Shown here in pieces: positions 8,913-25,187 of a stretch of DNA of 25,187 nt. The notes under the pieces are model-generated. The model was not told the origin of the DNA. It ran no database searches and saw only the letters and a list, made by a program, of their open reading frames with translations. Source of the DNA: Atractiella rhizophila. Taxonomy: Eukaryota. The stretch's first letter is position 1; every line of letters begins with the position of its first letter. The DNA is taken from assembly GCA_021432655.1 (NCBI GenBank), contig MU271336.1, forward strand, positions 62,001-87,187, read 5' to 3'. A program made the position numbers and the translations under genes.

Positions 8913-9089
8913 GCTCGTCTCTTGTTTCATGGTCTGTTATATTCTAGATGATATTTTGAATGGTATATCAATGGAGCAAAGGTTAGACATAAAATACACG
9001 GAACATGTGTGTGCGATACAGACTTGCGAAAGTCCAAAATGCCAAGAAAACGCTTGCATATCCAAACCCTAGACCTCATTATCCTCTCC

Positions 9090-10168
9090 TCATAACTTGG
9101 ATTGACCTGTTTTTCCATCAGCGAGATCTGGGAAAGGTTGATACGAAATGACTCACCTCCTTCCTCCAGCTGCAAAAACAAATCCTTCAATCCCTTGATT
9201 CCTCTGGAAGCGTGTTGAGACACTGTCTCCTTCTCTACTCTCAGTAGACTATCATTGAAGACCTCCAAGCTCCAATCGCCATCGTAACCCGTCTCCTTAA
9301 CAACCTTCGAGAACTCGATGACGGGTAAATACGCTCCAAGGTCCGTCTCGAGAGGAAACAGGCGATGAGATCTCGACCAAGGTCTGAGGGGAGGGATTGA
9401 CGGATCTTCGGGAGGGAGGAGGGGAGGAGACATGAGTTTAGCGTCTGCGACCTGGTATATGAAGATCTTCTCCTTCGGTATCGTCCTGCTCAACTCCCTG
9501 AGCGACGCACGCAAGCTCTCGTCCGCCTTTTCTTGCTTTCCGCTGATCGAATATGGGTCCGCCCACTCCCTGGCCAACGAGTTGAAGCTGTCGAGACATA
9601 TTCCGACGTTGTCTCGGTTCGTCATCCTGATGACATCCCAAGTCTGCTTCCAAGTGCTCACCCTCGTTCCCCAGCTCAGACCTTCGTAAGCCAATCTACA
9701 AGGCGGTTGGAGCTCGGCAAGCCGGTCAGCGAGCCATGTGAGGTCTTTCACTGCTTCTTGGGGGGATGAATGGAGGACGTTAGCGGGGGAAGTGTTGGAA
9801 GGGACAAGGAGGAGGTCAGTCCCTAGATGCGGGAGGAGGATGTAGAACTTTCGAGCGCGCTCGTACGCGTCTTTCTTCTTCTCAGAATCCATCCATCCCT
9901 CGAAGTCACGCAGGGGCTGCAGGCAGCTGATCTTCAGTCCTGCCTGTTTGACGAGAGAACCAACTTCCTGTGCGGCGGCGATGGCAGTGGAGTCTTCGTC
10001 CTCGTCCTGCCCTTTTGAGTGGGCGTACGACTTTAGAAAGGCGAACCAGTCGTTGTCGAAGAGTTCAATGGAGCTGAATCCGGCGCTGGACGCTGCTTGG
10101 ATCTTCGCTTGGAGGGAATGTGAGTGGCAGTCTCCAAGTGAGAGGGAGGCAATTCCGAGCAGTGGCAT
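9090..10168 (-). CDS. qutC: 3-dehydroshikimate dehydratase (QutC/Qa-4 type, xylose-isomerase-like TIM barrel), 342 aa, one intron at 9156-9107, C-terminal SKL
   Basis: Motifs IASLSLG, KI.AA..AGF..IELF, LQPLRDFEG, AYEGLSWG, GICLDSFN, YQVADA, PWSRSHRLFP, WSLEVFN. Divergent from a quinate permease. GTGAGT...CTGAT...CAG intron gives ...LEEGGQSKL*. Confidence 0.85.
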
Positions 10169-10492
10169 TTCGAACGTCGATGTCGCTGATCGATTGACGC
10201 TGCTCTAAATATTGTATGTTTGGGGCGATAAACTGAAGGGAAGCCATCGAGTTTATCACTTCTTGCTTGGCTGGATGAAAGCTCTTGACCGACTTGAAAG
10301 TTCTTCCACCACCCCGGGGTGCGATAAACTTTCTTCCACCTCCCCAGCGCCAAAAAATTGCTGCGACCATCTTTGACATTGACTCGGAGGAGCTCTTCAT
10401 TTAGTTCAGTGGAGTCTTTATCATCCATCTGGGGCACATATAAGTGGTGCATCAGCGAACCAACTTCAGCCCACTGCTACCTGATATCCATC
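10169..10492. promoter_or_regulatory. Compact bidirectional promoter shared by qutC-like and qutD-like genes (second copy at 13227-13550)
   Basis: 324 bp between divergent ATGs (10168 minus, 10493 plus); contains several GATAA/TTATC words. Confidence 0.7.
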
Positions 10493-12860
10493 ATGAGGTT
10501 CAGCATTCAGGAAGACCCAAGGGTGAGTCCAGTTCGACATCCCCAACGGTTCAAATTTGCAGAGCAGCTGACGCTGAAAGTACTAGACTCCAAAAGATGT
10601 CTACAACTGGCGCGTATATCTCAGCGCAATTGTAGCAGGCTGTGGAGCACTGCTCTTTGGCTACGACTCCGCCTTCATCGGCTCGTACGTTGCTCTTTTA
10701 CCTAGCATTGCCCAAATAAATGTGGACCCCTGTTTACAGATTACTCTCTCTCCCATCCTTCCGCCGACAATTTGGACTGGACACGTTGTCTACTAAAGAA
10801 TACGCCGACACGAGCGCAAACATCGTCTCTATCTTCCAAGCTGGATGTTTCTTTGTACGCTTCCTTCTCCTTGCGCGAAGATGACGAGTATGAACGAGCT
10901 TCGGATTAAAGGGTGTAATATTCGCTTATCCGTGGGGAGAACGCTTTGGACGTCGAAGCGTCATAGCTGGAGCTGCCGTGCTTTTTGTCGTTGGGTCCAT
11001 CATACAACTTGTCTCGAGGAGTCTCGCCCCATTTTACCTCTCGAGGGTGCTGAACGGACTCGCTGTTGGCGGAATCACGTAAGTCTCCTCTCTCCAAAGT
11101 ATCGGTCTCTAGCGGCACTAACTAATAACATTGCAGCCTGGCGTGCCCAATTTAGTAGGCCAATTCCCAGACTTCTTTGGCTGTCATTGATGTGCATATT
11201 CACTTTAGCATCGCTGAAATTGCGCCTCCCGCCATTCGAGGACAGCTCATCGGCTTCTACGAGGTGGCATACCAAGTTGCTGCCCTCCTCGGGTTCTGGG
11301 TATGTTTCGTTTCTCCTCTCCTCTTAAACTATCTCATACCTCGCCAACACAAATCAACTACGGTGTCAACAAGCACATGTCTCCCAAAGGAGATTCGCAA
11401 TGGATGGTCCCCGTATCAATCCAACTCATCCCAGGGGGCCTCCTCTTCGTTTGTTTCTTCCCCTTTCTCCGTCTCTATTTCCTGATCAACAAGAACAGAT
11501 TGGCACCTTCTTCATCCCCGAAAGCCCACGTCAACTCGCAAAAAGAGGCAACTACCCAAAAGCCCTCACCTCACTCTCCTGGTTGAGGAACCTTCCACAA
11601 GATCACAGCTATGTGAACGAGGAGCTCTTCCAGATTCGTCAACAGATCGAACATGAGACCATGGGCTTGGCAGGACAGAAGAGCGGCGCCAGAAGGCTGT
11701 TTGTTGCGCAGGTGAAGGAGTTGGGTAAGAAGGGAATCTACAACCGTCTCATCGTTGGTTCGCTTTTGATGCTGTACCAAAATGCGACCGGAATCAATGC
11801 TAGTTCGTTTCCCTCTTTTCTTCCAAATGACGCGGAGCTGATACTACATCTCAGTCAATTATTGCAAGTCCCCCCATTATCACTTCCATATTGCGTTCTA
11901 ATATCCGTCATAACCAAAATATAGACAGTCCGTGCGTTGGTAAGCTCCACAAAAAGATGCCTAGCTAATGACAAATTCAGAACCATCTTCAAAAGCATAG
12001 GTGTGACGGGAACGAACGCAGGTCTCTTTGCGACAGGAATCTACGGGGTTGTACGTGCTTTCCTGCTTTCCACCTTCCTTACTCACCAAATACACAAAGG
12101 TTAAACTAGTCAGCTCACTCATTTTCCTCCTCTTCCTCATCGATCGAGTCGGTCGACGGCTTCCCCTTCTCATCGGTGGAACGTGAGCCAACCCGTCATC
12201 GATTTGACGTGCGATTATTGACTCTCGTATGTAGCGCCTCCTGCCTTTGCCTCTACTACATCGGCGCCTACATCAAGATCGCAAATCCTCAACCTGTCGC
12301 CGGCGCAACTCCAGACTCAGCTGGCATTTCGGCGATCGCCATGCTCTACATCTTCGTAATATTCTACTGTGCATCCATCAATGGTATCGCGTGGATCTAC
12401 AAGTATGCCTTTCCGTTATAAGTGAAGTGTTATTTCCGTGCTCACCGACTCTCGTCATTGCAGTGGAGAGCTGTTCCCGACGAATATTCGTGGACTGTGC
12501 GCCGTAGTGACCACTTGCTTCCAATGGATCGGACAATTCGCAATCACTCGAGCGACGCCGTACATGTTCGAATCTTTCAAATCATATGGACCGTTCCTGT
12601 TCTTTGGATCATGTACTCTGGTTGGAACAACGTGGGTATATTTCTTCATTAAGGAAACGAAGGGGGTCTCGCTGGAGGACATGGACAAGCTCTGGGGTTA
12701 CGACCGCTCTGCAACCAATGGCGGAAGAGAGGTGAACGACGGAGAGAGAAAGGAAGTGAGGGAAGATGAAGAAGCAAAGAGCATGTCGATGTCTTCAAGC
12801 TCAGACGCCTGGGAGAAAGAGCAGGAAGAGCGAGTGGAAGGCTCGAAGATGGAAGCGTAG
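10493..12860 (+). CDS. qutD: Quinate permease (sugar-porter MFS), copy 1, 13 introns; intron-6 acceptor mutated
   Basis: Spliced N-terminus MRFSIQEDPRTPKDVYNWRVYLSAIVAGCGALLFGYDSAFIG matches the QutD/Qa-Y EDRPTPxxVYNWRVY...GYDSAFIG signature. Also YIAEIAPPAIRG, PESPR, GINAINYYSPTIF, IDRVGRR, ELFPTNIR, ETKGVSLE. Confidence 0.88.
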
Positions 12861-13014
12861 AAAATAAACCAGCTCATAAAGGCTTATGTGCATGTACATC
12901 CATTGAAGAAAAATCGTATATCAATTCCATGAGTAACCGCACCCGTTTCGAGACGAGTAGATTTGCACAAAGCTTTGGATAAATTCAATTTCGACTTGAA
13001 CTGTGGATATTCTC

Positions 13015-13143
13015 TCATCCTTGAGCAGCGAGAGCGTCTCTCGTAGCAGTCCACGCTTGCTTCTTGTTATAATTTTCATCGTAAAGCAGCGCAGCACCAT
13101 AACCAGAAAACGTGCTCGGGATCCAAGAATATTTGTCTGTGAC
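13015..13143 (-). pseudogene. Orphan duplicate of the GH10 xylanase last exon
   Basis: Matches 16073-16201 ([42 protein letters not shown]); no upstream exons. Confidence 0.92.
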
Positions 13144-13145
13144 CT

Positions 13146-13226
13146 TCAGAGATTGGTAATCTTCGCTTGGAGGGAATGTGAGTGGCAGTCTCCAAGTGAG
13201 AGGGAGGCAATTCCGAGCAGTGGCAT
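13146..13226 (-). pseudogene. Duplicated 5' stub of the dehydratase ([26 protein letters not shown])
   Basis: 13159-13226 equals 10101-10168; the frame stops just past the junction. Confidence 0.92.
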
Positions 13227-16215
13227 TTCGAACGTCGATGTCGCTGATCGATTGACGCTGCTCTAAATATTGTATGTTTGGGGGCGATAAACTGAAGGGA
13301 AGCCATCGAGTTTATCACTTCTTGCTTGCCTGGATGAAAGCTCTTGACCGACTTGAAAGTTCTTCCACCACCCGAGGTGCGATAAACTTTCTTCCACCTC
13401 CCCAGCGCCAAAAAATTGCTGCGACCATCTTTGATATTGACTCGGAGGAGCTCTTCATTTAGTTCAGTGGAGTCTTTATCATCCATCTGGGGCACATATA
13501 AGTGGTGCATCAACGAAGCAACTTCAGCCCACTGCTACCTGATATCCATCATGAGGTTCAGCATTCAGGAAGACCCAAGGGTGAGTCCAGTTTGACATCC
13601 CCAACGGTTTAATTTGCAGAGCAGCTGACGCTGAAAGTACTAGACTCCAAAAGATGTCTACAACTGGCGCGTATACCTCAGCGCAATTGTAGCAGGCTGT
13701 GGAGCTCTGCTCTTTGGCTACGACTCCGCCTTCATCGGCTCGTACGTTGCTCCTTTACCTAGCATTGCCCAAATAAATGTGGATCCCTGTTTGCAGGTTA
13801 CTCTCTCTCCCATCCTTCCGCCGACAATTTGGACTGGACACTTTGTCTACTAAAGAATACGCTGACACGAGCGCAAACATCGTCTCGATCTTCCAAGCTG
13901 GATGTTTCTTCGTACGCTTCCTCCTCTTTGCACGAAGATGACCTGTATTAAAGAGCTTCGGATGACAGGGTGTAATCTTCGCTTATCCGTGGGGAGAACG
14001 TTTCGGACGTCGAAGCGTCATAGCTGGAGCTGCCGTCCTTTTTGTCGTTGGGTCCATCATACAACTTGTCTCGAGAAGTCTCGCCCCATTTTACCTCTCG
14101 AGGGTGCTGAACGGACTCGCTGTTGGCGGAATCACGTAAGTCTCCTCTCTCCAAAGTATCGGTCTCTAGCGTCACTAACTGATAACATTGCAGCCTGGCG
14201 TGCCCAATTTAGTAGGCTAATTTCCCAGACTTCTTTGGCTGTCATTGATGTGCATATTCACTTTAGCATCGCTGAAATTGCGCCTCCTGCCATTCGAGGA
14301 CAGCTCATCGGCTTCTACGAGGTGGCATACCAAGTTGCTGCCCTCCTCGGGTTCTGGGTATGTTTCGTTTCTCCTCTCCTCTTACAGTATCTCATACCTC
14401 GCCTACACAGATCAACTACGGTGTCAACAAGCACATGTCTCCCAAAGGAGATTCGCAATGGATGGTCCCCGTATCAATCCAACTCATCCCAGGTGGCCTC
14501 CTCTTCGTTTGTTTCTTCCTCTTTCTCCGTCTCTATTTCCTGATCAACAAGAACAGATTGGCACCTTCTTCATCCCCGAAAGCCCACGTCAACTCGCAAA
14601 AAGGGGCAACTATCCAAAAGCCCTCACCTCACTCTCTTGGTTGAGGAACCTTCCACAAGATCACAGCTATGTGAACGAGGAGCTCTTCCAGATTCGTCAA
14701 CAGATCGAACATGAGACTATGGGCTTGGCAGGACAGAAGAGTGGTGCGAGAAGGCTGTTTGTTGCACAGGTGAAGGAGCTGGGTAAGAAGGGAATCTACA
14801 ACCGTCTCATCGTTGGTTCGCTTTTGATGCTGTACCAAAATGCGACCGGAATCAATGCTAGTTCGTTTCCCTCTTTTCTTCCAAATGACGCGGAGCTGAT
14901 ACTACATCTCAGTCAATTATTGCAAGTCCCCCCATTATCACTTCCATATTGCGTTCTAATATCCGTCATAACCAAAATATAGACAGTCCGTGCGTTGGTA
15001 AGCTCCACAAAAAGATGCCTAGCTAATGACAACTTCAGAACCATCTTCAAAAGCATAGGTGTGACGGGAACGAACGCAGGTCTCTTTGCGACAGGAATCT
15101 ACGGGGTTGTACGTGCTTTCCTGCTTTCCACCTTCCTTACTCACCAAATACACAAAGGTTAAACTAGTCAGCTCACTCATTTTCCTCCTCTTCCTCATCG
15201 ATCGAGTCGGTCGACGGCTTCCCCTTCTCATCGGTGGAACGTGAGCCAACCCGTCATCGATTTGACGTGCGATTATTGACTCTCGTATGTAGCGCCTCCT
15301 GCCTTTGCCTCTACTACATCGGCGCCTACATCAAGATCGCAAATCCTCAACCTGTCGCCGGCGCAACTCCAGACTCAGCTGGCATTTCGGCGATCGCCAT
15401 GCTCTACATCTTCGTAATATTCTACTGTGCATCCATCAATGGTATCGCGTGGATCTACAAGTATGCCTTTCCGTTATAAGTGAAGTGTTATTTCCGTGCT
15501 CACCGACTCTCGTCATTGCAGTGGAGAGCTGTTCCCGACGAATATTCGTGGACTGTGCGCCGTAGTGACCACTTGCTTCCAATGGATCGGACAATTCGCA
15601 ATCACTCGAGCGACGCCGTACATGTTCGAATCTTTCAAATCATATGGACCGTTCCTGTTCTTTGGATCATGTACTCTGGTTGGAACAACGTGGGTATATT
15701 TCTTCATTAAGGAAACGAAGGGGGTCTCGCTGGAGGACATGGACAAGCTCTGGGGTTACGACCGCTCTGCAACCAATGGCGGAAGAGAGGTGAACGACGG
15801 AGAGAGAAAGGAAGTGAGGGAAGATGAAGAAGCAAAGAGCATGTCGATGTCTTCAAGCTCGGACGCCTGGGAGAAAGAGCAGGAAGAGCGAGTGGAAGGC
15901 TCGAAGATGGAAGCGTAGAAAATAAACCAGCTCATAAAGGCTTATGTGCATGTACATCCATTGAAGAAAAATCGTATATCAATTCCATGAGTAACCGCAC
16001 CCGTTTCGAGACGAGTAGATTTGCACAAAGCTTTGGATAAATTCAATTTCGACTTGAACTGTGGATATTCTCTCATCCTTGAGCAGCGAGAGCGTCTCTC
16101 GTAGCAGTCCACGCTTGCTTCTTGTTATAATTTTCATCGTAAAGCAGCGCAGCACCATAACCAGAAAACGTGCTCGGGATCCAAGAATATTTGTCTGTGA
16201 CCTTCAGAGATTGGT
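13159..16215 (+). repeat. Tandem segmental duplication, unit 2 (3,057 bp)
   Basis: Collinear with 10101-13157, separated by a single A at 13158. Confidence 0.97.
13551..15918 (+). CDS. qutD: Quinate permease, copy 2, apparently intact, 13 introns
   Basis: Same exon structure and, by manual comparison, same protein as copy 1; all acceptors are AG, including CACAG at 14410. Confidence 0.9.
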
Positions 16216-17637
16216 TTGGTTAGAAACGCGGAGTGTCGCATGAGAGAAAGAGAGGACCGTACCCCCCACACCGTGATGGAGACGCATTGAGGACAAGCAT
16301 TGACAACATCTCTATAATTCGTGGCTTGCAGCGCGTCGTTCCTCGCACTGGTCTGCTGACGGATATCCAGCTCGGTGATTGCCACTTGTAGGCCTAACGC
16401 TGAGAAACGAGCAAGGTTGGCTTTGAGCGTGCTCGGTATTTGACCATTGATAAAGTGGGATTGGAACCCGATGCCATCGAGAGGAACACCTGTCACAGGG
16501 AAAGGTATGACATTGCGCGATTGTTAGAAAGCAAAATGCACCTTTGGCTTGGAGCTGTTTCACGACGTTGTACAATCCATCTGATTTCGCATTCTGTCCT
16601 TCGATGTTATCTGTACAAACATTAGAGTCAAAGGCGGCTCCTTCCGAAAGTGAACACACAATCGTTGATACTGCGAATTGCTCCGTCAAGCACTGTTTAC
16701 GTTGGTTGGACGGGGAGGACGTACTACAGCTTCGCCGCGGGATCAGCAGCCCTACATCTCCGTTGTTATATGTTGCAGGAAGAGATAAAAGGGAAAAACC
16801 TGGCATAAGTCAAGGATTTCGTAAAGAGGTCGATTCCGAAGGCCCTACTCCAAATGGTGTCCTTAATGGCGCCGTTCTCTTCAATGTGTTCATTCTAAAA
16901 TAAAAACGAGACCAATTTCTTTTAACCTGCAAAATGGTGGAACAGAAACACGAACGACGACATCCCAGGCGTATATTTTCCCCTAGACGCAGGATTAAGT
17001 ATGTATGATCATTGCGGGGAAAGAAGGGATGTGCAACCTTGTAGTGCGTCATCACTTGAGTGATGTGATTCTTTAAGGCCGCATCCAGCTGACTCGCGCT
17101 CAGACCGCTTACCCAAGAAGGGAGCTGGTTAGCCCAGACGAATCTGTTTTATTCATTAAGAGCAAACTCAGGTCATCTGCAGTACACGACTAGACGTACG
17201 TGTGACCTCTGACCTTCGCTCCGTTGTTCAAAGCAAAACTAGTTTCACCCGTCAAAGAAGGGCAAGAGGGAAGCTACTGAGACATACTTGACGATGTTAT
17301 CCGCTGCCGCGAAGTTGAACACACCTTGCTGAGGCTCCGTCGCGTCCCATTTCATCTCGTTCTATAAGGTCAAGCTTTAGCAAAACGAAACAAAGGCAGA
17401 CAAAAAGTTCTAGGGAGTAGTGTGAAGGAACACTGCGGGCTTGCTTACCTCTGGAGTGAAGATATTAAAGTCCCTAGCCGCAGTTGTGGCATAGGCGGAC
17501 TCGGAGAGGTGAGAATTAGCGATTGCTGCTCCGACATAAGGCGAAGCTCCAGCAGCAGCCTTCAAGGTCGTGGCTTGACGTTTCTGGTTCGGGACGACCG
17601 TGGCCGTGGCGAGAGCAAGGATGGAGAACAAAAGCAT
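16073..17637 (-). CDS. Secreted GH10 endo-1,4-beta-xylanase, 11 exons, no CBM
   Basis: Signal peptide [12 protein letters not shown]. Spliced motifs [28 protein letters not shown] (acid/base Glu), [25 protein letters not shown] (nucleophile Glu), ITVWGVTDKYSW. All 10 introns are GT-AG and in frame. Confidence 0.95.
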
Positions 17638-19831
17638 CTTCGTCTTCTGATACTCGTACCAATATATTGCGCTGACGCTGAACGTATGGGTTTGATCGAT
17701 AGAGTATGATGCACTTTTATACTTCAAATCCTCGTGGAAGGCGTGAAGCTCCTGGAAAGGGGAAGTGCTCTGGACTGGCCTGTTTTCGGCGAATTGACGT
17801 GACAGTCAACTTGCAATCCATTCGTCTCCACCCAGCGTCACGCAAGAACTCGTTTTGGCGTCCACACTACAATATTGAAAGCTCCGATAGAGCAGCGGGG
17901 CCTGTCACTGTGGTAACGTTCCGTGATATTAGTGCTGGTGCTTCTGCCTCAGAAATCTACGCACCTTTACACATCGATTCTGATGCCAGGAGGCATTTGG
18001 CGCGGGAACATGTTAGTGTCAAGCGAGCGGTAGAACTTGAACTCAATCACCTCCCTCCTGACTGTTGCTGAACATGATGACAAAGGTAGTGCAAACAGGG
18101 CGAAAGGATTTTAGCCGTGAGAAAGCTTGAAGCTACGGAGAAGCTGGAGTCCTTTTGGGCATGTTACTGGAGCTTTGATGAAGGAAGAGACTGACGCCTG
18201 ATTACTGCGATAAGGCGACAAGAACATCATTCTCTACCACGTAGGATGAGCGAAGTCTGCGTCGGAAGAAACGATTGGGTATGCTTTACCTACGATCGGG
18301 AAGAGGTGCAGGTGGGAGGTGAAATTTGATGGAGCCATAGGTAGAATATTTATCTCCGTCTTCCTTGTCATGTTGGCTTGTCGTTCGCCAGTAGTGCTAG
18401 TGGCCAAGACCTTTGAACTTCCTGCCCAATGCGAAGTGAGTGCTGGGAGCGGCCTGAAGTGGTGAACGCTGCGATCAACCTTGAGAGCACCTCATCCGCA
18501 AAGTGGCAGAGCAGACAGACAGCTGGTGTGCGTTGATGAGCATGAGCTTCGGACAATGGACTTGGGCGTATTTCAGGCATGAGTCTCAGGAAGTAATAAA
18601 TGCGGCTCGACACGCCGCTTGATAATGCTCGCAGTAACTCTGGAAAGGCTTCAGTGCACGCACAGACAACCGGAGGATATCGTGGGAGGGGATAGTACAT
18701 GTGAACCCTCCCTTCGCATCGCTCTCCCTTTTCGAACTCCATGGCCAGTTTTTCACTTTGCTTTACACTCTCGACTGCAGTTCTTTTGCTGAGCTCCTAC
18801 TGAAGCGGTAGCCACCAGCACTCGCTGCGGATCTTCGGATCTTTGATTTGTTTGTCGCAAACATCGACAACCACTAACAATTTGTCAAGATCACAACGAC
18901 GAAGAGAAGTTCCAGAAGAGGAACGGCCATCGCGGGGTATATGAGTAAATTTGGAATCATATTGGTGAGCTTTTGTTTCAACGATTCTTGGTCACTTTCG
19001 TGAACCTGCTTCCTTCTCTTGTCTTGCAAACCTCCAGGAAGTAAATGTGAAGCATCTACTTTTGTTCAATAGACTTTTATTGTTCATTCGTCACATATTC
19101 GAACTTACATAATACATCCGACATTCTTGCACGACTTTTAGGCTCTACTTTGACTTTGATCTCTAGGTAGCGATATTAACCCGAAAACCTTTCAAATCCA
19201 ATGGAACCCAAGCCTAGCGAATCATAGAAGTTAAGCACCAAACGGACTTTCACAACTGTTCATTCCACATATCTTTTTTGTTACGATCAGGGGTAATATG
19301 CGTAAAACAAGTCGTTTGTAGGTCCGTCAAGTTAAATGAGGCGTTCCGTAACCCTTCGCGTACCTCAAGGGCTTTGACAACACGTATTTGGTATTGTTTT
19401 CAGACGCAATGTATTCCAAGCTCCTGAGAACTGAGAATCAACACGGAGCTTTTCCGAGGACGCAGGTTTGTCAACCGAGTATACCGACGCAGAAATCCTT
19501 TGATCTATCCGCACATTTCAGGATGATATGGATTGCTTCCTTGGACTTCTTATAGCGAGAAGTCCCATTCCCCTTTTCTTGCTAACCCTTTGGGTTTGAC
19601 TTTGTGAGATCAGTTCGCTTTGACATCGTTAAGTGAAGTCGAAATACTCCTCACTCAGGACCAATCATCATTGTCCTGAAATGAATGCGTGCAAAGCTTT
19701 TTTTTCTCCCTCTTTGTCTTTTTTGATTGGGCGGACTCGCGGTTCGACAAGGTACTCAGTCTTTCACGCATCATCCCACATACAATTCCTCCTATGAAAG
19801 ATGTTAACTATTATAGCCCAGTGTTGTCGAA

Positions 19832-21953
19832 ATGGAAGATTTTCGCATCCAAGCCTTTCTTAAGCCAGACCCTTCTCTGATAGTGACGCCCTCGACCAGT
19901 CCTCCTTCGCCGGCTCAGTTTCAAGTGAAACAATCATTAAAAGAACAAGGGAAGTGCATAACAAAAGATGATTTCAGTTACCCCTCGCATCCAACTGACG
20001 GGTTCTTCTCTGTGACCTACTTGGATCATGTCAGAAATGAACTGCGAGCGTTGCATTCTCTCAGGTTCTCGCCGTTCTACGAGAACGTCTTGATGTTGGG
20101 CAACTTCAGGTAGGTCTTTCAGCTAGCAGTATGAGCTCCTCTAATCTTGTTCAGGGACTCACAGTGTGCATCGGCATTTTCAGAAGACATTAACCATTTT
20201 CTCGTTTTTCTTCATCCCGCCCATTGTCTAGACGTCGTCAGCGTCCGTTTTGAATGCGTAACGTGTAGGCTTGATTGCTCCTTATAACCCTTTTCGGTTC
20301 ACAATGTTGCCTACAGCTGAAATATACTCTGCACGCTTCTTTCATGATGACGATTGCTTGATCACTGTTTTTCTCTTGGTAATTTCGTTGTCAAATGTGT
20401 CGTTGATTAAAACTGATTCGCATATTTAGCCTCCAAATTTACTTTGCGAAATGGACTGGGTCGCGGCAGATAATCTTACCCCCGTTACCACAGACTGCTT
20501 ACGACTACTCGAGAATGCCGCTGGCCCAACACCAGATAACTCACTGGTCGTTTTCTGCGACTTGAAATGTTCCGTTACCCTTCGATGCAGCAGTTATGAC
20601 ATCAAATATGCTTTTCATCATGAACCTTACCTTCCTTTGCTTACCTTCCTATCTGAAGGCTTTGCCAAAGTATGCGACTGCACCCGGTATTCCGATCGAA
20701 TTGGACAACCTCACTTTCCTCGGACAGCCGTACTTGGGTGCCGAAGGAATGCTTCGAAATCTGCCTCGACTCAAATTGATCTCACTAGCATCACAAAAGC
20801 CTCACAGCTTGACTCCTTCGATGTTCAGAATGCCAACTTTGATTTTCGAAAGGCTCTCCAGTGTTGGCATCAGCGCGATCGGAAAGAGGGAAGTTATGGC
20901 TTGATACTTTGCAGTTACCTGGAGAGAGCATTCGAATCATTTCTCTTCTCTCAGATGTTGTGGACACTAGTTTTCCCGACCCAATGCTGCTTACCAGTTC
21001 CGATGACCCAATACTTCTTTACAGGCAAAACCTCATTTTACATGCATCTTCATATTCACGAAAGTCACTTCCCCATTTTCGATTAAACGATGGAGATGTT
21101 GTTCAACTCCTTCGAACAATCAGGTCCGGCGATAAGTATTGGGGACAAATTTACGAGGTGGCGATTCCAAACATGGAGCTGAATGGTACTCGTTTGGTTC
21201 TGAAGATTTATGATGAAAGGCTGTTTCCCTCCCCGGCTTGGGAACTGGACGAGGAGGTATCGGATCGAGTACGACGATGGCCAGATGCAGCAGAGTCATT
21301 GGGACGCGAGCAGACTGCTTATTCTGCTCTTCGGTTACTACAGGGGTCTTCCATTCCCAAATCTTACGGCTTCTATGAGGTATGCTGACAGGTCTCTCGT
21401 AATATTGGCTCATGTCTGCATAGCTGGAGCTGAGCGATGGAAGCAGAGCACCTGCTCATCTTCTTGAACTGGTTGAAGGACCACATCTCCATAAAGCAGA
21501 TTTAGGATCACTTCCACTTGAGGATCAACGAGATTTTGTCCGTAAATGTTTCTATCTGTTGCTAACTGTTTACTTCTTTCCCAGTACATCAAAGGGATGG
21601 CCCTTGTTGGCGCCATGTTACTTCTTGGAGTAAACCACACGGATATCGACCAGCGACCAGATCAAATAATTTGCCATCGTAGCGAATCAGGGGTTTTGAA
21701 CCCCGTCCTTCTGGATTTTGGGATGGCGAATGTTGGCGTCTTCATGGACGAGAGCACCTTACAGTCCAAGGACCTTGCCTGGAACTTCGAAGCCTTGCAA
21801 ACTCCGGATTCCATGCACATGACCTGGTTATTGTTTAAACATCTGGGATGGGAGTTGGAGGATTATTTTGAAGTTGCTCCCTCTAATGTTTGGAAGTGGC
21901 TGAAGAGCCAAAAGTTTGGGCCATTCAACGTCGAATGGGAGCGACTGGGGTGA
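19832..21953 (+). CDS. Multi-exon protein with unknown N-terminal region and C-terminal fungal protein-kinase-like domain
   Basis: C-terminal part has VLKIYDER, REQTAYSALRLLQGSSIPKSYGFYE, LLELVEG, VNHTD and VLLDFG. Upstream ORFs can be joined by introns such as 20110-20154 and 20863-20914; the 5' model is less certain. Confidence 0.65.
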
Positions 21954-22203
21954 ACAAGTATGGGTCCTTACTTCATACATACTTCAAATGGATTTAGCTG
22001 GAATTTATACTTCGAACCTCGTCGAAAGGCTGATGCTGGAAGGAGGCGCCATGGGCATGTCTGTTTTCGGTGTTTTGACTGAAGAGTTAAAGTTAAATGG
22101 TCACCTTGCTCCCCTGCTGTCTCCATTGTCATGTCATAACTTGTTTAAATTTGAACCACCACATGCTCGCCGTGTATGGCGTGGTATGAGGGACACCAGA
22201 ACG

Positions 22204-22294
22204 GTAGACCCTCAGGGATATTGGTAGACCCTCACGACACCTCAGTAGACCCTGGTCAAAAAGGGTAGACCCTCAAAAATGACAGTAGACCCTC
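22204..22294 (+). repeat. Five direct GTAGACCCT(C) motifs at 20-21 bp spacing
   Basis: Copies start at 22204, 22224, 22245, 22265 and 22285. Confidence 0.95.
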
Positions 22295-22770
22295 TCAAAT
22301 TGAGGTTAGAATGTTAGCTACCGAGTATGTACCTTAGTCTGTCGACTTCAACATAAAATATTATCCTGCAAGTGCAAGCGTGACAAGAATACAGCAAAGC
22401 ACAAGACCTCTGAGATGAGAGGAAAAGAAGTACAATGGAAGGAAAAGCGCACCAGCGAACCCATTATCAATCCATCAAGCTTGATTTGTCGCCATTTAAC
22501 TCTCTATTTACGTGCTTGTCCCGTTTCTCAAGCAGCACCAACAACCAACGGCGGCGGAAAGGAGAGAGAGGAGCAATATCTTTGTCCTTGGCTTCGATTT
22601 TATAAGCTTTCCGGTCTTGAAAGGTGAGCTGCCCTACTCTAAGCCTTTGCTTGTCCCTTAAAGTTGCTTGCTTCCGGTGACTCTGCTTTTCACCGAGCAC
22701 AATGGGTTGCTAAAGTGTTCTATACATTACATATGTTTTCTGGAGTGCTAAGATACGATTCTAGCAGGCA

Positions 22771-24618
22771 ATGAGCAAAAATTTGAGGAAAAATCGCCGT
22801 AATGCGGTTGAGGAGGCAAGAGAGGCCGCTCGAAACTACAACGTCCTAGAACAACATCCAGCTACAATACAGCCTGCCCCATTCTCTTCAGAGCAAATTC
22901 ATCAAATTCATGTGGACCTAGCTATAGAAGTTCGGCCAGTGTATGACTTCTGCCAGCTCCTTCGTGTTGATTATACTCCGAACCGATTCCTCGAGCTTCC
23001 CCATTATCTTAATCTTATAAACGAAGCAATCCAACAATATTCATCACTGAAGGAACAACTACCGCATGACTCTATATTCATACCAAACCTTTTACGCCTT
23101 AATGAGCTTCAAGACCAGCTGGCACTTCTTGAGACGGGTGTGCATAGATTAGGCCCAAAGAAGTGTACATGGGTTATGGGAGAGAATGGACGAAAGGTGC
23201 TTGACATTGATCAAGATACAGTGGAATTCTATCTGAAGGAAGCTTGGGATGATGAGTGAAGAGATTGCGACTGAGCTTGGTGTCTCTGAAAAAACTATCG
23301 ATTGCCGGCGCAAGGAATGGGGATTGACACAAGACATTCTTAAGAATCCTGTCAGCGAAGACGTTCTCACCTATGTCATTTCAAAACTGTTATCCTCTGG
23401 CGATCGATACATTGGACTTCGAGGTATTATTGGAGCCCTCAACAGTATGAAGGTCCCTTTTCGTCACCGAGTTCTACAAGCAGTTATGCGCCGCCTCAAT
23501 CCTGTCGGCGTGGCAGAGCGATGGGGTGCCACAATAGAGAGGAGAGTTTATTCAGTTCCTTTCCCTATGTCTCTATGGCACATTGATGGTAGGTTCCTTT
23601 TCCCTTTATTCTTCACATAAGCTGATATTCTAACAGGTTATGCAGCATTAATTAACTGGAAATTCATTGTTCATGGCAGAATTGACGGCAAAAGTCGCCT
23701 TATCGTTTACCTCAAGGTGGCCAACAACAATCGAGCTGAAACTGTCCTAAGCTCATTCTGGACAGCCTGTAGGACGTGGGGTATTCCAAGTCGATGTCGA
23801 GCAGATTTTGGAGGGGAGAATACATTAGTGAAGCTGTTTATGGAAGTTCTTAGAGGCACCGAGCGAGGTAACCACTTTTTGCTTCTTAACTATGGATGTT
23901 GAGTTATTGATTGTCCAGGTTCCATGCTTCTTGGATCATCAACACGTAATCAGCGGATTGAACGACTTTGGAGAGACATCTGGAACTGGGTGATTCGAGG
24001 TTATTATGTTCTTTTTACTTTTATGGAAGAAACAGGTGTCCTAAATCGTGAAAATCCCCTTCATCTTTGGGCACTACATTATGTCTTTCTCCCTCGGATT
24101 CAGTCATCATTGGATCATTGCGTACAAATGTGGAACAATCACCCCATGTCTAGAGAGGGGTAGCCGGACACCTTTACAAATTTATTATCGAGGTAGTCAT
24201 TCATCCTTCTTTCAATACATGGACTGACAACTTATCCTATCTCCCATTTATAGGCTTGCTACATGCCAAAAATGCCGGCTTTTCAATTAATCTCGAAGAT
24301 GAACAGATTGGGAGAAAGAATGATGATCTGCAACCTGATATTCAGACTGCGCGCCTTACAGACTTTGCAGAATACGGTATTGATTACGAGTTTTTGCAAC
24401 AGCGAGAGTGGAATGAAGAAGATCCTTACATTCACATTGGTCCGATCCCAGATTTCCTGACCACAGATGAATATACATGGCTAACTCATACTGTTCCGGT
24501 AGGAGGTAGAAGGGCTGATGATAGGATGGGGCTTGGCCCTTATTTGGAGGTGATCGAATGCCTTGACATTATACGTGAGCATCAAAGGAGCTCATCTCAA
24601 CTCATTAATCAATTGTAG
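22771..24618 (+). pseudogene. Integrase-core DDE transposase with HTH, 3 introns and two +1 frameshifts
   Basis: HTH EEIATELGVSEKTIDCRRKEWGL. Core RRVYSVPFPMSLWHIDG, HGRIDGKSR, NNNRAETV, PSRCRADFGGEN, GSSTRNQRIERLWRD, WNNHPM. Frameshifts near 23242 (EAWDDE* vs LGMMSEE) and in the G-run 24157-24160 (REG* vs SRTPLQIY). Confidence 0.85.
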
Positions 24619-24680
24619 CAATTTTCCGATACAGAATAAATAAATAATATCATTGCAGCTAATTGTTTAGTTATCACCAG

Positions 24681-25187
24681 TCAGAGTTCCTCCTCTTCAT
24701 ATGAGCCGTCTCGCAAGCGATCAAAGGCCCTGTGCGCTCTTCCTTCAAATGATGGGTACGCAATACGACCATAGGGGGTGCTGGCCTTTCTGATTTTGTC
24801 TGCCTCAGCATAGTCAACATCTTTATCAGCGGCAATGAGTTGAATAATTGTCTCAGTAACCAGTGCCTGTTCAAGTAGGAAAAACTGCTTGTCCATCACT
24901 TCTTTTGACCGTGTCCCTCCCCTTTCAACTATAAGCCAGTTGGTCAGATGGTCAGTAATAACTTCTTCTCCTCGTTTTCCATAACTGCAACAAGTCACAA
25001 TAAGCAAGCAGGAAAACTCGTAGAACGGCATCACGTACTATCCCGGTCCATCATCTCCATTAACCACATTGGCCAATTTGATACCTGTCTTCCTACCCTC
25101 AACGCTATTGTATTGATCCTCTGCATTGTCGAGAAGCCGAGAGGGTGTCTTTTTGAGCAAGATATTGTTGAGATGGGGTTTGAGCTC
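24681..25187 (-). CDS. C-terminal part of an RTC4-like domain protein, intron 25038-24985
   Basis: Spliced PGYYGKRGEEVI...FLLEQALVTETIIQLIAADKDVDYAEADKIRKASTPYG fits the RTC4 pattern GYYG.RG...VL.PE....LI..D.....A......S..YG. Confidence 0.7.

Follow-up and report, generated by a model that had tools for sequence, protein, structure and literature searches.

The 25,187-nucleotide stretch of Atractiella rhizophila contig MU271336.1 analysed here (the window) ends inside an IS3EU DNA transposon, in which the transposase gene is arranged tail-to-tail with a gene for an RTC4-domain protein. The RTC4 gene very likely lies within the element. The most satisfactory overall reading, held with somewhat better than even confidence, is a low-copy, polymorphic IS3EU transposon whose standing second gene encodes the RTC4-domain protein. 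The parts visible in the window are:

22169–22174, + strand: inferred left copy of the target site duplication (TSD), GCCGTG, placed by an empty-site contig that diverges after 22174; right copy unread
22175–22293, + strand: left terminus, TATGG and five 9-bp direct repeats about 20 bp apart
22771–24618, + strand: IS3EU-type DDE transposase of about 559 aa, with an HTH region, an rva_4 core and a DD34E triad
24619–24680, no strand: AT-rich gap of 62 bp between the two stop codons, a common 3' region
24681–25187, − strand: 3' end of the RTC4-domain gene, cut by the contig end (exon match and spliced gene call P0001)

TATGG begins at 22175, directly after GCCGTG (22169–22174). It agrees with the TA..TA ends of IS3EU/GingerRoot elements (TAYGG..CCRTA in fungi; TAYGG is given as the fungal IS3EU end in the available text of PMC12730594), and it coincides with the breakpoint of the empty site. 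The 9-mer GTAGACCCT follows five times (starts at 22204, 22224, 22245, 22265 and 22285; spacings of 20, 21, 20 and 20), with no other copy, direct or inverted, in the whole window. Not one of 500 base shuffles of positions 21500–23000 contained a 9-mer with three or more copies within 120 nt. Judged by position and spacing, the repeats are likely candidates for transposase binding sites. A preliminary description of this DNA had proposed both the TATGG terminus and the subterminal repeats; the shuffles and the absence of the 9-mer elsewhere bear out the repeats, and the terminus is confirmed by contigs of two sequencing runs that leave the window exactly at 22174.

These contigs come from public data comprising three runs from at most two samples. 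X1 and X2 are DNA runs of one sample (S1, possibly the source of the window) and are not independent of each other; the comparison rests on the contig matches listed, with some loose ends and pieces lying outside them. In both DNA runs, a short contig tracks the window to 22174 and then continues into 24 different letters, and a long flank contig of X1 (contig 5, 19706–22174) stops at the same position. The diverging contig is an empty-site allele, and it fixes the left end of the element at TATGG. In a toy de Bruijn graph of a filled and an empty allele (k = 31), the piece private to the empty allele has 30 letters minus those of the TSD, and among TSD lengths of 0, 2 and 4–9 bp only 6 bp leaves 24 loose letters. 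If the contigs were built from 31-mers and both alleles are in the sample, the 24 letters (30 − 6) imply a 6-bp TSD, as in IS3EU/GingerRoot elements, although this is indirect and the left copy only was read. The duplication of GCCGTG, raised conditionally in the preliminary description, is thus matched in length. The 24 letters further mean that a second path joins at the duplicated hexamer, and hence that an intact right junction exists. Loose ends of X1 and X2 at 22181–22199 would be explained by an 18-nt tandem duplication in one of the terminus copies, which may be the right end or the second copy.

No match to a 20-mer of the empty-site continuation occurs in the window, even with 3 mismatches allowed, and no further GCCGTG follows 22174. 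This places the right end past 25187 and the visible stretch of the RTC4 gene within the element, in the interval missing from the empty allele, as a second protein-coding gene of the kind known from IS3EU/GingerRoot. IS3EU/GingerRoot elements have terminal inverted repeats of more than 30 bp. An inverted match to the 20 outermost bases (5 mismatches allowed) or to the 9-mer (2 allowed) is missing between 22300 and the window end, in keeping with the earlier remark that matching right-end repeats do not occur in this interval. The contig end falls within the RTC4 gene, as expected at a repeat. P0001, an independent gene call on an 87,187-nt contig, is open at the same 5' point as the RTC4 gene of the window, so the assembly break most likely lies inside the element.

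These data bear on the suggestion that RTC4 is merely a neighbour, that is, an ordinary single-copy host gene whose 3' end is abutted by a truncated, deletion-associated or rearranged element. RTC4 has host orthologues (yeast RTC4), its depth equals that of the flank, and it is transcribed in run X3, where the transposase has no contig cover. However, past 22174 the empty-site haplotype carries sequence that the window lacks, and the 24-letter length demands an intact right junction elsewhere, which makes this explanation very improbable.

Contigs also run directly from one gene into the other. Record 8 of X1 (23783–24973) and record 16 of X2 (24197–24973) span the transposase–RTC4 junction without a break; their depths are 0.96 and 0.92 of that of the flank, respectively. 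Together with the empty-site contig, whose continuation the window lacks, these contigs uphold the earlier proposal that the RTC4 gene is inside the element. It is improbable that RTC4 belongs instead to a second transposon (KDZ-like, for example) that landed directly behind the IS3EU transposase. A further transposase could lie in the unseen right part, but a 62-bp gap hardly fits an element end, the transcript ends inside this gap, and the junction is crossed without branching at near-flank depth.

The principal contigs of the element diverge from the window by about 1–2% and reach 0.77–0.96 of flank depth, against 0.5 expected for one copy on one haplotype, contig depth being a weak measure of copy number. 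The simplest reading is two copies 1–2% apart, the second of them non-allelic and RTC4-bearing. Alternatively, both haplotypes are filled here and the empty form is present in a subset of molecules, which a depth of 0.8–0.9 also fits; heterozygous flank sequence has a depth of 0.84–0.86, the same as that of the element. Both readings keep RTC4 in the unit, and only a non-allelic second copy would prove co-mobilisation. No flank of a second locus was found among the contig matches listed for X1 and X2. A more diverged transposase paralogue (window 23386–23755) is present at 0.42 and 0.36 of flank depth in X1 and X2 (about 0.4), and its presence shows that the genome has a small family.

The transposase gene contains three introns, all GT..AG (23589–23636, 23868–23918 and 24193–24253). 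Two of its exons match PF24764 rva_4 (E values of 2.4e-27 and 8.7e-27), and the N-terminal HTH is weak. The catalytic triad is D272/D329/E364, with a D-to-E spacing of 34 residues that is the same in all four relatives checked. The PF24764 match and the DD34E triad place the protein with the IS3/integrase-like (rva_4) transposases of IS3EU/GingerRoot, by a comparison made without a tree against Repbase members. Over 517 aligned positions, it is 36.8% identical to the Tulasnella protein P0004; no close relatives of P0004 or of alignment A2 were found in the viral contigs scanned. The intron-containing DDE transposase of the preliminary description is accordingly confirmed by introns, profile matches and triad, and its assignment of the element to IS3EU is supported by the transposase, the TATGG left end and the inferred 6-bp TSD.

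The transposase frame of the window is broken by a single base at two points, near 23240 and near 24157. At each point the contigs of X1 and X2 lack one base, so their sample contains an open transposase frame. All three runs also differ from the window by one base in the flank (20874), a pattern that points to indel errors in the sequence of the window. The frame breaks may be either assembly errors or lesions of the window's copy.

The RTC4 gene converges on the transposase gene, with stop codons 62 bp apart. Its 54-nt intron (24985–25038) interrupts a conserved GYYG motif. Against RTC4-like (PF14474), the exon by itself reaches 30 bits; P0001, the spliced gene call of 150 aa, reaches 42.8 bits, above the gathering cut-off of 23.7 and across most of the model (profile positions 3–118 of 121). 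The convergent RTC4-like gene recognised earlier from the sequence alone thus holds as a profile match. A P0001 search of 1.84 billion representatives returned three matches: P0001 itself, one repetitive and probably spurious protein, and one other; the best relative is only 36% identical over 52 aa. Close P0001 relatives were likewise missing from the metagenome contigs scanned, and a word-index search with the RTC4 exon gave none among 77 candidates. Along the full-length RTC4 alignment, conservation is nowhere strong enough to provide a stretch for scanning. The named nearest relatives of the two element proteins are from Tulasnella and Mycena.

In Mycena/Favolaschia, RTC4 is multicopy (22 proteins). 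The Mycena relatives are 650–1,170 aa long, and in their consensus each RTC4 unit is preceded by Cys/His motifs. AlphaFold2 models of P0001 (pLDDT 68) and Favolaschia P0057 (pLDDT 70) are both mainly helical. Foldseek comparison of the two models with the PDB and viral libraries gave nothing at an E value of 0.001 or better, the best VIA-align Z score was 4.1 for both with no match above noise, and a sequence search of the PDB gave no match. A likeness of P0001 to retroviral capsids (six matches, Z 3.0–3.5) was set aside as noise, being absent among the best 50 matches of P0057. The Atlas holds sub-threshold matches only for P0001, and RTC4 clusters for the Mycena protein P0003. A match to the C-terminal region of PWWP3A/B (E = 0.069, in one of 18 members) is a lead only.

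Run X3, which carries a different organism label, behaves as RNA, with 13 spliced joints at intron ends. One of its contigs (2,901 nt) covers 24655–25187 and continues for 2,354 letters past the window. It ends at 24655, 26 nt past the RTC4 stop and within the 62-bp gap, and its size is that expected for a long protein like the Mycena relatives. The contig retains the predicted RTC4 intron and carries 14 extra letters; in the sequence of the window, the unspliced RTC4 frame stops before the domain core. The retained intron could reflect antisense transcription, a regulated form of retention or a defect of the copy. The missing X3 cover of the transposase was not taken as evidence that the transposase is silent.

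A scan for related transposases gave 93 loci, 80 from metagenomes (the best of 512 confirmed) and 13 from MAG contigs, almost all non-fungal by source and composition. The transposase core of the fetched loci is 47–57% identical to that of the window. A local RTC4 profile matched at none of the 93, which says little about fungi given that the loci are nearly all non-fungal. An ORF of at least 150 aa lies within 5 kb in 35 of the 50 loci that have at least 2 kb of downstream sequence; for 33 of the 35, the longest such ORF runs on the opposite strand. Counted by family (n = 26), the downstream ORF is opposite in 14, on the same strand in one, on both in one and absent in 10. The strand count alone is not decisive, since a similar bias appears in a small upstream control of 13 families (opposite in 5, same strand in 1, both in 3, no ORF in 4). 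HECT matches were found in 14 of 45 ORFs scanned (13 above cut-off), belonging to four families (for instance, at loci L006–L008). Clean terminal inverted repeats with a 6-bp TSD are present in two of 25 long loci, L042:8079-15631 (7.6 kb) and L087:8617-15923 (7.3 kb). Both are complete elements with TATGG inverted ends that enclose convergent ORFs, and that of L042 has a HECT domain. Two further loci, L022 (5 mismatches) and L081 (a TA run), were set aside as elements with such repeats and a TSD. Loci L081–L093 are eukaryote-type IS3EU transposases in prokaryotic MAG records, several labelled as symbionts, and are probably host contamination.

Published accounts agree with this layout. IS3EU is described as encoding two proteins in the available text of PMC8232023, and that of PMC12730594 reports a transposase and an alpha-kinase in opposite orientation in the IS3EU elements of rusts. 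IS3EU elements thus normally have a second gene tail-to-tail with the transposase, and the novelty lies in RTC4 being that gene. As far as the available texts go, the element shares with IS3EU/GingerRoot (PMC10045372) and with the fungal TET+ IS3EU of Pucciniales and Tuber (PMC12730594) the TAYGG end, the 6-bp TSD, an rve-like DDE transposase (HTH-like N-terminal region, no HHCC motif noticed), and a second gene of opposite orientation. In contrast to the alpha-kinase or TET/JBP genes given for the TET+ elements in that portion of PMC12730594, the gene here is RTC4. In the sequence to 25187, the rust arrangement of an opposite alpha-kinase gene with TET/JBP between is replaced by RTC4 and a 62-bp gap. 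By its transposase, left end, TSD and second gene, the element is an IS3EU element, and as far as it is seen it does not belong to the TET+/alpha-kinase family of rusts. Among the non-fungal IS3EU-type loci, L042 and L087 are alike in TATGG inverted ends, 6-bp TSD and convergent ORFs; the second gene of such loci is often HECT-like, as at L006–L008, and RTC4 was found at none of the 93. Styx/REP9 of Zymoseptoria, as portrayed in the available texts of PMC8232023 and PMC10853768, is similar in being a fungal IS3EU-related element with a 6-bp TSD, extra genes and polymorphic insertions. It differs in having four genes, DUF3716 proteins and an ascomycete host, and RTC4 is absent from both main texts. 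With the RTC4-like family PF14474 (yeast Rtc4, Mycena P0003), the gene shares the domain match and GYYG, but here it is in a transposon.

RTC4 does not occur in the main text of PMC12730594, to which the search applied. No RTC4 gene inside a transposon was found in print in the RTC4 literature, in the KDZ papers listed or in the main texts on fungal IS3EU and Styx/REP9. HECT was likewise not found in print as an IS3EU partner, in a search dominated by unrelated HECT papers. RTC4 would be a third kind of partner gene for the poorly described IS3EU superfamily, and the three suggest that the second-gene slot is exchangeable. The domain is a fungal one without a solved fold, and its placement in a transposon with an empty-site allele offers another reading of its expansions. 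The rust expansion (45 vs 15) has been interpreted as an adaptation to DNA damage (available text of PMC9370660). Yeast Rtc4 is described in the available portion of PMC6162548 as a nuclear and cytosolic protein of unclear function that is repressed in zinc deficiency and has a genetic link to telomere maintenance; the connection of RTC4 with DNA ends comes from a yeast genetic screen.

The RTC4 gene could be passive cargo, a host gene or its 3' part captured once (Pack-type) and without a role in transposition. Such capture is known in the superfamily, gene fragments being present in 22 of 77 IS3EU/GingerRoot copies in Selaginella (PMC6839031), and it would suit a protein without close relatives among the 1.84 billion representatives or the metagenome contigs, as well as an intron retained in the RNA-like contig. 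Nevertheless, RTC4 is placed and oriented like the second gene of the family, its stop codon only 62 bp from that of the transposase, and the seen part of the element holds no other gene. The RNA-like contig of 2.9 kb has the size of a whole long gene. Among the contig matches listed, no parental copy appears as loose ends over the RTC4 part. The observed/expected CpG ratio of RTC4 is as low as that of the transposase (0.61 vs 0.69, compared with 0.82–0.88 outside; the sequences are short), suggesting long residence in the element. Passive cargo is on this evidence rather unlikely, and we lean towards RTC4 being a functional helper kept by the element.

On this helper reading, the DD34E transposase would bind TATGG and the subterminal 9-mers, which lie about two helical turns apart, and pair the ends. 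It would then excise the element and insert it through a 6-nt staggered cut that yields the 6-bp duplication, the chemistry being taken from the rve/IS3EU family. The mobile unit would start at 22175, include both genes and reach a right end past the assembly break, as indirectly indicated by the empty site, by the lack of its continuation in the window and by the unbranched contigs. RTC4 would fill the convergent slot held by HECT in non-fungal loci and by alpha-kinase in rusts; the slot is seen in these relatives, and the equivalence of its occupants is presumed. Its product would probably be a long protein that, as in Mycena, combines a helical RTC4 module with Cys/His motifs for zinc binding, and would serve as a non-catalytic helper. 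It might act on host chromatin or on DNA-end and damage responses, so that silencing is reduced or breaks are tolerated. Among helper functions, this one appears most likely because the other occupants of the slot are enzymes able to modify host proteins or DNA; in itself, a role in chromatin or DNA-end responses is a tentative suggestion.

It is tempting to speculate that the RTC4 module is a helper swapped among unrelated fungal DNA transposon superfamilies, like TET/JBP, in an exchangeable host-manipulation slot (HECT ligase, alpha-kinase, RTC4). This is possible but doubtful. If true, the RTC4 expansions of rusts and Mycena would be transposon copies and not DNA-repair genes, yeast RTC4 would be either the source of the module or a domesticated copy with a function at DNA ends, and the retained intron that splits GYYG could act as an on/off switch for the helper.

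The window as a whole is intron-rich fungal DNA. The element inserted about 220 bp past the stop codon of a multi-intron gene (18963–21998, + strand) that is spliced in X3 and has a kinase-like C-terminal part by eye; four exon ORFs gave no Pfam matches, and loose ends at 21607–21677 indicate paralogues of it. A run of 481 N at 2507–2987 is a scaffold gap. An ORF of 425 aa (8930–10204, − strand) resembles sugar-phosphate isomerases and dehydroshikimate dehydratases by eye, and a gene at 16137–17900 (− strand), spliced in X3, resembles secreted glycoside hydrolase 10 proteins by eye; both are ordinary host genes. Between them, at about 10000–16100, lies a tandem duplication of about 3 kb with two near-identical sugar-transporter-like genes (ORF pairs 11328–11921/14221–14979 and 12426–12857/15484–15915) and adjacent duplicated sequence, which could be a true duplication or uncollapsed haplotypes.
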